Position numbers: made by a program. From IMG/VR virus record IMGVR_UViG_637000263_000002: a stretch of 57,257 nucleotides of DNA; one strand, given 5' to 3'. Below are positions 19,982-24,035 of the stretch, piece after piece. Position 1 is the first letter of the stretch. Each line of letters opens with the position of its first letter. The DNA is from a virus (taxonomy: Duplodnaviria; Heunggongvirae; Uroviricota; Caudoviricetes).

Positions 19982-22900
19982 GCGAGATTTGAGACGAAGG
20001 TTGTTATTTGCACTGACACAATATTGTGTGGGAATGTCTGACTCCTTACCATCTCCTGTTCTGTGATGTTGTTTTGTTGCAGTTCCAGTGCTCTTTTTTC
20101 AGCACCAGAATGGTGCATTGTCGGTCAGGTTACGTAGTGAACCTCTGGCAGGGGACTGATAATGCATCATTCTGGTGTTGTAAATATCTCTTCGGACAAC
20201 TTACAAAATATTCTAAGCAAACCCCGGGAACACACTCTTAACTGCCTTGGTTGGCGGTTTTTTGTACAGTGCTCGGTATGTGTGAGCTGGAAATCAGATT
20301 TTGCATGGACTGGAATCATGCTGTTATTTAGGGGCGAAGAACTGGCTTTTTCTTCCGCCTTCTCACCAGTAACGATTAGAAAAATAATGAAATGCCCCTC
20401 CGGGGAGGAGGACCGTAGAAAAAAGGACCCGCCAGCAAAAACATTGGGGATGAACAGCTTTCGCTACTCAGATTGCTGGCGGGTAAAGTTCCTCATGAAT
20501 TAAGAATGCTACGCGATCTTTTTTAATGGAAATGAAAATTATTGTCAATTAGTCGTGCGTGTTTTTTCATACAATATTGGTAAAGGTGATTCAGGCCATC
20601 AGAGTTTTGCTGATGGCCTTTTTTCTTTCCGATAGCACAGGTCTGTCGGGGGGGCGGGATATGTATCAGATGGAAAAAATATCAACAGGCATTGCCTACG
20701 GCACCTCCGCCGGCAGTGCCGGCTACTGGTTTTTGCAGTGGTTGGATCAGTGAGGTGTACTGGCAATAGCGGACACTACCATTTGTTCTTTTTTTAAGCA
20801 GCCATCTGATGATATTTTTCCCTGAAGGCTGCCGGGGAGATATTCCCCAGACGAGAGTGACGACGCTGACGATTGTAGAAAATCTCAATGTATTCCCGTA
20901 TTACTGAGATGGCTTCATCCCGGTTATTAAAACGATAGTGGCTCAGGCTCTCATTTTTCAGCGTTCCCCAGAAGCTTTCCATCGGAGCGTTGTCGTAACA
21001 GTTACCTTTACGCGACATTGATGTTTTCAGACCAGACTGCTCCTGTATGACCCGGTAATCGTATGCGCAGTACTGTGAACCTCGATCAGAGTGGTGGATT
21101 AGCCCGGCAGGTGGGCGCTGGCTCCTGAGCGCCATAAACAGGGCTTTACCTGTCAGCTCTTTTGTCATGCGCTCTCCCATGGCGTAGCCGACAATTTCGC
21201 ACGTATAAACATCTTTGATGCCAGCAACATACGTCAGGTCCGCCACCCAGACCTGATTTGGTGCTGTAGGAGCGAACGTCTGGTTCAGCAGATTTGGCGC
21301 AACTGGCAGATTGTGGTTCGGGTTCGTAGTCGCTCTGAACTTGCGTTTCTGCTTACAGCGTAGCCTCAGCTCCTTACGAAGACGTGCCAGTCGGTCACGA
21401 CCAACGATGATGCCATTCTCTGCCAGCTCCGTCTGGAGCCGCCGGGTTCCATATGTTTCGCGAGTGCGGATATGTGCCACCTTAATCTCCAGTTTTAGCC
21501 GCTCATCACTTTGTTTTCTGTCTGAGGGTTCATGCTGTACCCAGTTGTAATAACCGCTCCTGGATACACCAAATACCTGACACATCGCTTCAATGGGAAA
21601 TTGTTGTCGCCATTGTTCGATTAACGCGTATTTTTCAGCGACTCCTGTGCAAAATACGCTGTTGCTTTTTTTAATATATCGCGCTCAAGGCGAGCTTCAT
21701 TTAACGCCTTACGCAGTTGCAGAATTTCAGATTCCAGTTCAGCCACCGTGCGGGAACCAGGAGTACCGAGCCCTTTTCTGGCGGCGGTAACCCATTGTCC
21801 TAAAGTGCCTTCAGGAAGGGATAATCGGGAAGCGCCTTCACTGATCGAAAGTTGATTTTCAAGAACCGTTCTGACAGCTTCGGCTTTGAACTCTTTAGAG
21901 TAACGTTGGGTTTTTCTGCTCATTATTAGCTCCTTCTGATGCCATTCTATTTCAGGAAGGAGTGTCCGTTAAACTCAGGCTACCTCAGTCAGCGCTGGAA
22001 CGACGAGAAGCCAGAAACCATTCAACCACAATCCAGACCATCATCCGCAATCACCGTATCGAAAACTGGCTATGTGTTTTTCGACAGGTGAACCATGAAA
22101 TCAAAAATCAAATCGCTACTGGTCGCTGGTTATAACCACGGCTGGTTAAGTATTTCGTTTGTCGATTTCTGGTTTAAAAATCTCAATCTGAGGGAATCAT
22201 GAGGCCAAGTGAACTTAGCGACCTGCTTTGGGCGCAGGTTGACAGGGTGGCTCCGCACCTGTTGCCAAACGGCAAGATAGAGGGGCATGAGTGGGTTGCC
22301 GGTAACGTCAACGGTGACAAGGGAAACAGCCTTAAGGTCAACCTTATCGGCAAGAAAAAATGGGCTGATTTCGCTGAGGGAGACGGCGGTGACATGCTTG
22401 ATTTGTGGATGGCATGTCGTGGAATTAACCTGCATCAGGCTATGCAGGAAGCGAAAGCATTTCTCGGTATCAAGGATGACGATCACCATTTCGATGCCAG
22501 ACGTGAGAAGAAATTCTCCAGACCTGATCGTAAGAAAATCGCCCGCTACGTTACCAGAACAGAATCCCATCTTGAGTACCTGCAATCGCGTGGCATATCG
22601 CCAGAAGTCGTAAAGCGCTACGAGGTTGTCAGCGGCAAGGTGTGGAATGGAGAACGAGAACTGGATGCTCTGGTGCTTCCGTACAAACGCGATGGTGAGT
22701 TGTTGCAGGTCAAGCGAATCAGCACTGAGCGCCCGGACGGGAAGAAAGTCATTATGGCAGAAGGTGATTGCGAACCTTGCCTGTTCGGATGGCAGGCTCT
22801 GGACGCTGGCGTGAGGGTGGTTGTGCTTTGCGAAGGCGAAATTGATTGTATGAGCTATGCGCAATACGGCATCTCGGCGTTATCCGTGCCGTTTGGTGGC

Positions 22901-24035
22901 GGGAAAGGCGCTAAGCAACAGTGGATTGAGTTTGAGTATCACAACCTCGACAGGTTTGAGGAAATATTCATCTCGATGGACGTTGATGATGTTGGTCGTG
23001 AAGCCGCAAGGGAAATCGTAAGCCGACTCGGTGAACATCGTTGCCGTCTTGTTACTCTGCCGTACAAAGACATCAACGAATGCCTGATGAACGGTGTTAC
23101 CGAGGATGAAATCTGGCAGTACATCGGCACGGCATCCTACTTCGATCCTGAAGAACTCTACAGTGCGCGAGAGTTTTACCAGGACACTATCAACGCTTTC
23201 TACGGCAAGCAGCAGTATCTGTTTAATCCACCGTGGGAATCTCTGGCAGATAAATTCCAGTTCCGTGAGGCAGAGTTGACGCTGGTCAATGGTGTGCACG
23301 GTCACGGAAAGGCATGCCCACTGAATGAGCCTATTCTTTTAGCTGATGGGACATGGACTACTCACGGGAATGTAAAAATTGGCGATCAGGTGGCGTCAGT
23401 AGACGGCAATCCGTCAACTGTCACTGGGATATTCCCGCAGGGTGTTAGAGATGTTTACCGAGTCACATTTGAAGATGGTCGTTATGTTGATTGCGCAGGC
23501 GATCACCTATGGGAGGTCACTAGTCGTGGATTCACGAAAGGCGAGAAACGCCGCGTGATAGATACCTTCGGGTTGAAGCGGTTGAGTGAAACGAAGAGGC
23601 ACAAAAATGGCGTTAGGATTCCTGAAATAACTGGTGACTTTGGCGACCACTCAGAGCCATTAGCATGGGTTATCGGCTCCCTTCTCGGGGATGGTAGTCT
23701 TAGCAATGGGAGCGTGAAGTTTTCAAACGTCGAGCCATACATGATCGAGCGTATGAAGGCTGAACTGCCTGATTACAACTTCTCTGGAGATGGTAAGGAC
23801 TGGCTGATATCAACGGCGCGTGGTCAGGTAAATCCACTCATGGAGACCCTGCGAGGTTATGGACTAATGGGGTGCACAGCAAAAAACAAATTCATCCCTC
23901 GTGTGTTTTTTTCCGCAAATAAATCAACGCGTATAGGCATGCTGTGTGGTCTGCTTGAAACGGATGGGTATGTCGAGAAGGATGGAACGCTTGTTTTTTC
24001 CTCAGCAAGTGAAGAACTGCGCAATGAAGTGGTCA

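Follow-up and report, generated by a model that had tools for sequence, protein, structure and literature searches.

Remnant of a class 3 intein in the Walker A motif of a truncated prophage primase-helicase gene

Described class 3 inteins and the locus under study

Class 3 inteins are distinguished by a non-nucleophilic residue at position 1 in combination with Trp at B12, Cys at F4 and Thr at G5; they are usually followed by Ser or Thr at +1 and reside mostly in P-loops of helicase-type proteins (Tori et al., 2010, PMC2807308; PMC3196547). In the solved MchDnaB1 intein the W-C-T motif is made up by Trp67, Cys124 and Thr143, and the catalytic triad by Cys124, His65 and Thr143 (6RIX structure paper). 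Among enterobacterial relatives, a partial intein named in InBase as “ShP-Sfv-2a-2457T-n Primase”, which is devoid of N-terminal nucleophile and stops before block F, was listed by Tori et al. (2010, J Biol Chem 285:2515, PMC2807308), and an intein was described in protein P of the Stx2 phage vB_EcoP-24B (residues 372-702 by the authors’ count), with orthologues in phage Min27 and, in intact form, in a prophage of S. flexneri 5 str. 8401 (Smith et al., 2012, BMC Genomics 13:311, PMC3430580). Here, we addressed a stretch of 57,257 nucleotides from a caudoviricete virus record (IMG/VR IMGVR_UViG_637000263_000002; its whole length is hereafter “the window”), in which an open reading frame (ORF) called at 22199..24058 of the plus strand encodes 619 amino acids (aa), starting as a phage primase, passing into an intein and ending within an insertion sequence (IS).

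On the evidence considered below, the region very probably represents a non-functional pseudogene, a fragment of a lambdoid-prophage gene for a T7 gp4-type primase-helicase which once carried a class 3 intein with nested LAGLIDADG endonuclease in its Walker A motif. Positions 19199-27058 of the window are 100.000% identical to AE014073.1 (708835-716694), where the same 619-aa ORF is encoded; we take this accession to be S. flexneri 2a strain 2457T. Many S. flexneri assemblies also encode the exact protein, with the same arrangement of IS600, IS911, DnaC and DnaB around it, and among species-representative genomes S. flexneri SFBU1023 and one record bearing the label E. coli contain the junction sequence between intein and IS911. 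Coordinates of the features are collected in Table 1.

Table 1. Features of the window that surround and constitute the primase-helicase fragment
Feature	Coordinates	Strand	Evidence
IS600-like element of the IS3 family, left boundary of the phage fragment	20724..21987	-	ORFs, terminal repeat, start of homology
3′ end remnant of an O-like replication gene and intergenic spacer, same prophage as the primase fragment	21988..22198	+	Collinear with E. coli FDAARGOS_944 (L003) 5877-6099, Min27 (L001) and mEp043 (L002), 97-99% identity
N-extein, residues 1-371 of a T7 gp4-like primase-helicase (primase/Toprim, linker, half of Walker A)	22199..23311	+	Toprim_2, T7 gp4 PDB matches, allele alignment
Intein remnant, residues 1-238 of 342	23312..24024	+	Insertion relative to mEp043, Hom_end_hint, LAGLIDADG_3
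IS911-like element of the IS3 family, copy C, ending the gene	24025..25274	+	Copies, terminal repeats, orfA/orfB
Start of another lambdoid prophage: last 9 bp of an upstream gene, DnaC/IstB-like ATPase (about 25294-26172), DnaB-like replicative helicase (26169-27560)	25275..27560	+	Pfam IstB_IS21, DnaB_C

Insertion point, class and spread of the intein

The host gene is recognized by the match of Toprim_2 (Pfam) to ORF residues 209-296 (E 2.5e-11) and, in the sequence search against PDB, by the match of T7 gp4 primase/helicase to residues 191-331 (E about 5e-14). Its retained part closes with GVHGHGK (23291-23311), which is the first half of Walker A and the only portion of this motif kept in the window copy. 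Three reference alleles were aligned with it, namely the intact gene of E. coli FDAARGOS_944 (968 aa; L003, gene at 6100-9006), the intein-free gene of phage mEp043 (626 aa; L002) and P of phage Min27 (L001, positions 4001-6909 of which correspond to NC_010237.1 14575-17483); the N-extein is 97-98% identical to that of the intact alleles. Searching phage genomes by tblastn revealed relatives of two sorts, those matching all 608 residues at ~98% identity (Stx2a phages, Min27, vB_EcoP_24B, phiXuzhou21 and Klebsiella phage phiKp_30) and those matching residues 1-372 only, at 95-98% identity (mEp043, Sf101, ES18, epsilon34, g341c and others). The long alleles hold a block of 342 residues, ACPLNEP...YVATHN, between GVNGHGK and TEVVGH, whereas the intein-free protein reads GVNGHGK|TEVV, so that the insertion splits the helicase Walker A as GxxxxGK|T. 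At the DNA level the insertion relative to the mEp043 allele (site CTGGTCAATGGTGTGAACGGTCACGGAAAA|ACGGAGGTTGTCGGGCATATGG) amounts to exactly 1026 bp, or 342 codons, placed between GGA AAG and ACC GAG, and the flanking exteins of intein-bearing and intein-free alleles are 99.0% and 98.0% identical. Since a near-identical intein-free allele lacks exactly these codons, the insertion is an intein rather than a chance match. The helicase domain itself is seen in full alleles only: the mEp043 protein scores 28.0 bits with AAA_25 (cutoff 27) and E 3.3e-5, below cutoff, with DnaB_C, and this AAA_25/DnaB_C-type domain runs unbroken across the insertion site in the intein-free protein.

Within the insertion, block A (ACPLNEPILLADG, 23312-23350) begins with Ala372 (GCA, 23312-23314) and block B, GDHLWEV (23498-23518), contains intein His65 and Trp67, the latter being W438 of the ORF (codon 23510-23512). 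Hom_end_hint of Pfam covers ORF residues 379-424 (E 3.1e-5), and the inteins gp41-1, MchDnaB1, MsmDnaB1 and PI-SceI match residues 375-595 in the search of PDB sequences. The best PDB match of the intact intein is the class 3 MchDnaB1 intein (6RIX, E 2.1e-9): intein residues 13-79 align to it with His65 on His65 and Trp67 on Trp67, Cys322 of the intact allele (…ECLCIMVD…) falls on Cys124, and Thr340-His341-Asn342 fall on Thr143-His144-Asn145, the intact intein ending as …CLCIMVDHPRHLYVTRGYVATHN|T, that is, with terminal Thr-His-Asn and Thr at +1. Judged by its sequence, the parent intein is of class 3 in every defining position and starts at Ala372, not at Cys373. The remnant retains Ala (not Cys, Ser or Thr) at residue 1 and Trp at B12, and has lost by deletion Cys F4 and Thr G5, Cys322 and Thr340 being present in the intact allele only; Thr+1 likewise is seen in the intact allele, the insertion lies in the helicase P-loop, and the C-extein is gone from the window. 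Blocks F and G, the terminal Asn and the +1 nucleophile were not found in the window copy, where homology stops at intein residue 238.

The first-pass annotation had implied an intein start at Cys373, one residue downstream of the first inserted one (Ala372, 23312), as judged by the intein-free allele. A class 1 intein beginning at Cys373, with Ala372 left in the N-extein, appears attractive insofar as this Cys immediately follows Ala372 and CPLNEP resembles the start of a block A. Nevertheless, the insert boundary residues are unlike their neighbours at both ends, which makes alignment of the junctions unambiguous, and comparison with intein-free GHGK|TEVV defines the inserted block as A...N. 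Splicing from Cys373 would generate GHGKAT with the loss of the Walker A consensus GxxxxGK[ST], and the full W-C-T triplet of the intact allele aligns to a solved class 3 intein. Shigella primase inteins, moreover, were placed among those without N-terminal nucleophile (Tori et al., 2010, PMC2807308). A class 1 intein is thus improbable, and we reject it by boundary alignment and Walker A integrity.

Several points nevertheless weigh against our reading. The Hom_end_hint match scores 24.5 bits, under the Pfam gathering score of 32.1. Intein Cys2 could in principle serve as a nucleophile with the junction displaced by one residue, although this breaks Walker A (GHGKAT). Finally, the function of the 24B intein was not determined experimentally (Smith et al., 2012, PMC3430580).

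The proposal of the first-pass annotation, namely an intein with LAGLIDADG homing endonuclease hosted by a prophage primase-helicase, is corroborated by the matches of Hom_end_hint, LAGLIDADG_3 and PDB inteins and, for the host gene, by Toprim_2, T7 gp4 and allele alignment, and the motifs it quoted (GVHGHGK, block A, DHLW, LLGDGS, LLETDG) are all in place. Two descriptions require refinement: the segment termed “P-loop-like” does belong to the helicase and is in fact a true Walker A split between Lys and Thr, and the blocks termed “canonical” are indeed intein blocks, with a class 3 signature headed by Ala. Further lines of inquiry suggested there led to intein and LAGLIDADG profile matches, to intact homologues with the insertion at GxxxxGK|T, and to intein-free alleles in mEp043, Sf101, ES18, epsilon34 and others; the idea that these residues are a normal part of the helicase is dismissed by the absence of 342 codons from such alleles. 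A real intein was therefore recognizable from raw sequence alone.

For the intact 968-aa gene of Stx2a phages 24B and Min27 and of many E. coli prophages, alignment to experimentally studied class 3 inteins allows us to infer a class 3 splicing pathway. Cys322 of block F would attack the peptide bond between Lys371 and Ala1, the N-extein would be transferred to Thr+1, cyclization of Asn342 would release the intein, and an O-N shift would finish the splice with restoration of GxxxxGKT. The nested endonuclease is predicted to cut intein-free alleles, by which the element would spread. Its two motifs are present in the window copy as WVIGSLLGDGS (23666-23698) and MLCGLLETDGYV (LCGLLETDG, 23939-23974), with the acidic residue kept in both (GDG in VIGSLLGDG and TDG in LCGLLETDG), and LAGLIDADG_3 matches ORF residues 579-611 with 24.1 bits at a cutoff of 22.5 (Pfam). 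The second endonuclease subdomain is incomplete, as the window copy stops 17 residues past motif 2, and the LAGLIDADG_3 match, which reaches residue 634 in the intact allele, ends at 611 here.

Among E. coli complete genomes with the gene, the intein is present in 79 of 295, or about a quarter, mostly in O157:H7 Stx2a-type prophages, and all copies sit in the primase-helicase gene and are at least 99% identical. Such distribution fits a recently spread or clonally inherited element, the homing activity of which we infer. The codons adjoining the intein on either side show only synonymous differences between alleles with and without it (Lys AAG versus AAA and Thr ACC versus ACG in L003 and L002; the Lys codon is at 23309-23311 in the window), which could represent marks of co-conversion or changes by which the occupied allele escapes its own endonuclease. 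Klebsiella phage phiKp_30 (LC768498.2, 31139-32959) has an intein-bearing allele of 98% identity that is annotated as hypothetical protein, and the intein is therefore not limited to phages of Escherichia and Shigella. In the Min27 record a frameshift within the C-extein breaks the gene, elsewhere a single 968-aa ORF, into “replication protein P” of 860 aa and “DNA primase” of 111 aa, reflecting either sequencing error or genuine mutation. In RefSeq the 968-aa gene (e.g., L003 6100-9006) is called “toprim domain-containing protein”, a label naming neither helicase domain nor intein, which thus stays hidden in routine annotation of at least 79 E. coli genomes.

Truncation between two insertion sequences

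Homology to all three reference alleles spans only from about 21979-21988 to 24026. On its right side phage homology ends at 24024-24026 and an IS starts with TGAAGTGGTCAAC at 24025, so that the gene and the IS terminus have bases 24025-24026 (TG) in common; the ORF owes its final 10 codons and its stop (to 24058) to this terminus. Thus the proposed cut-off by IS911 at 24025, with the loss of C-terminal splicing blocks and C-extein, agrees with the point where homology stops. The element, which we take to be IS911, is delimited by TGAAGTGGTCAAC... and ...GTGTGCCACTTCA and bears orfA and orfB on the minus strand (24899..25237 and 24033..24872); two other copies show identities to it of 99.9% (15562-16810, +) and 99.5% (17794-19039, -). 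A 3-bp target duplication was looked for around copy C and none was found, the flanks being CAA and GAC. The left neighbour, presumably IS600, has orfA and orfB on the minus strand (21621..21923 and 20794..21585) and a terminal repeat TGAGGTAGCCTGAGTTTAAC ending at 21987, its left end (20724) being deduced from an assumed length of 1264 bp; HTH_Tnp_1 and rve were found on the IS600-like gene in identical loci (Pfam). Length, terminal repeats, ORFs and HTH_Tnp_1/rve fit the IS3 family for the elements flanking the fragment, with copy C devoid of target duplication. Between the left IS and the ORF lies the end of an O-like gene, whose counterpart in L003, a coding sequence for a helix-turn-helix domain protein, ends at 5992.

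The DNA to the right of IS911 has another origin. Its module is 99.9% identical to E. coli CFSAN029787, the match starting with the final 9 bp of the preceding coding sequence, and in E. coli FDAARGOS_944 the DnaC/DnaB module and the primase gene are 3.4 Mb apart. The DnaC- and DnaB-like genes were considered as continuation of the primase gene and rejected as belonging to a different prophage. Primase-helicase residues 614-968 occur nowhere in the window, where tblastn of the intact 968-aa protein returned only 22199-24037, other matches having E > 0.5. Taken together, the absence of target duplication and the different prophage on the right flank mean that this was not a simple, reversible IS insertion; ~2 kb of phage DNA (about 21988-24024) between IS600 and IS911 is debris of an IS-mediated deletion or recombination. 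In this S. flexneri genome such rearrangement removed all sequence past intein residue 238 and, on the left, all that preceded the final ~100 bp of the O-like gene. The remnant has lost Cys322, Thr340, His341, Asn342 and Thr+1 along with the end of the endonuclease and the whole helicase domain, and can therefore neither splice, home nor unwind DNA.

A rival reading takes the fragment for one half of a naturally split gene or intein, to which a partner from another locus would supply the rest in trans. The 619 codons remain open and S. flexneri assemblies with the identical protein are numerous (268 index blocks), yet the break disrupts the homing endonuclease domain at a point 84 residues short of block F, which is no natural split site, the last 10 codons derive from the IS end, and the C-terminal part was not found within the window. 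Clonal descent within S. flexneri accounts for the wide occurrence, the IS600/IS911 context being identical, and we give hardly any credence to a split system.

Retention of the truncated primase/N-intein protein for a new function, for example to disturb the replication of incoming phages, as a dominant-negative factor or decoy against related lambdoid phages using the same primase-helicase, is another reading of the frame that stays open and unchanged across many S. flexneri genomes. Compared with the three reference alleles the window copy has only four private amino-acid changes in 609 codons (K27I, S50I, A207V and N367H), and a weak sigma-70-like promoter match is found 5′ of the ORF (22081-22108). 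Against this, IS600 has removed the native pR-side promoter region, one of the private changes, N367H (codon 367, 23297-23299), falls within Walker A and converts GVNGHGK to GVHGHGK, and low divergence is equally well explained by recent truncation. We regard such a recruited function as very unlikely; the four substitutions are consistent with relaxed selection on a pseudogene, which remains our preferred reading.

The dense IS load of the region is expected for Shigella. Of the remaining IS911 copies, A (15562-16810, +) and B (17794-19039, -) are inverted and ~1 kb apart, and neither has its own 3-bp target duplication. The left flank of copy A is the same as the right flank of copy B (CTT), which, being of only 3 bp and hence weak evidence, would fit an inversion by recombination between the two. 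Further IS600-like copies lie at about 5779-6220 and 31131-31572, where the ends match the IS600 beside the primase fragment at 99%, with orfB-sized ORFs of 272 aa at 6181..6999 and 31533..32351. A cluster of four tRNAs (CAU, Arg-UCU, Thr-UGU and Gly-UCC) occurs twice in the window (19672-19981 and 28682-28992; about 98.5% alike), its equivalent in E. coli CFSAN029787 lying immediately 3′ to the Q antiterminator gene. The two clusters suggest that late regions of two related lambdoid prophages are present, of which one is a remnant upstream of the primase fragment.

Relation to known inteins

Through its endonuclease region, the intact intein can be aligned with residues 282-358 of PI-SceI (VMA1 intein), a stretch in which the second LAGLIDADG motif is included (E about 9e-8). 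This similarity is remote, and cleavage by the intact allele is predicted.

The inteins of mycobacteriophage Bethlehem DnaB, MchDnaB1 (6RIX/6RIY) and M. smegmatis DnaBi1 (6BS8), all of class 3, share with the remnant the non-nucleophilic residue 1, His B10 and Trp B12, and with the intact allele also Cys F4, Thr G5, the His-Asn end, Thr at +1 and insertion into a helicase P-loop. Sequence similarity to 6RIX and 6BS8 is only distant (E 2e-9 to 2e-6), and these are chains of 139-146 residues from DnaB, whereas the present intein holds a LAGLIDADG endonuclease and resides in a gp4-type primase-helicase of enterobacterial phages; the window copy, in addition, is without the class-3-defining Cys and Thr.

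Much closer are the alleles of 24B, Min27 and S. flexneri 5, which have the same host gene and the same insertion point and whose product, across the 608 residues kept in the window, shows 98% identity. They differ in being full length (968 aa, the Min27 record being frameshifted) and in possessing both the F and G blocks and a helicase domain, in contrast to the window copy, cut at intein residue 238.

With the InBase partial intein “ShP-Sfv-2a-2457T-n Primase” there is no detectable difference by description, and by name and description this entry is the same object as the window remnant. The remnant is therefore already catalogued and the intact Stx2-phage intein already published, and rarity of inteins in enterobacteria does not make the former new, since it is listed in InBase and by Tori et al. 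(2010) and the 24B version has been described. The use of the present analysis lies in the correction of annotation, which should record a class 3 intein, with Ala1 and W-C-T, in the P-loop of the gp4-type primase-helicase of enterobacterial phages.

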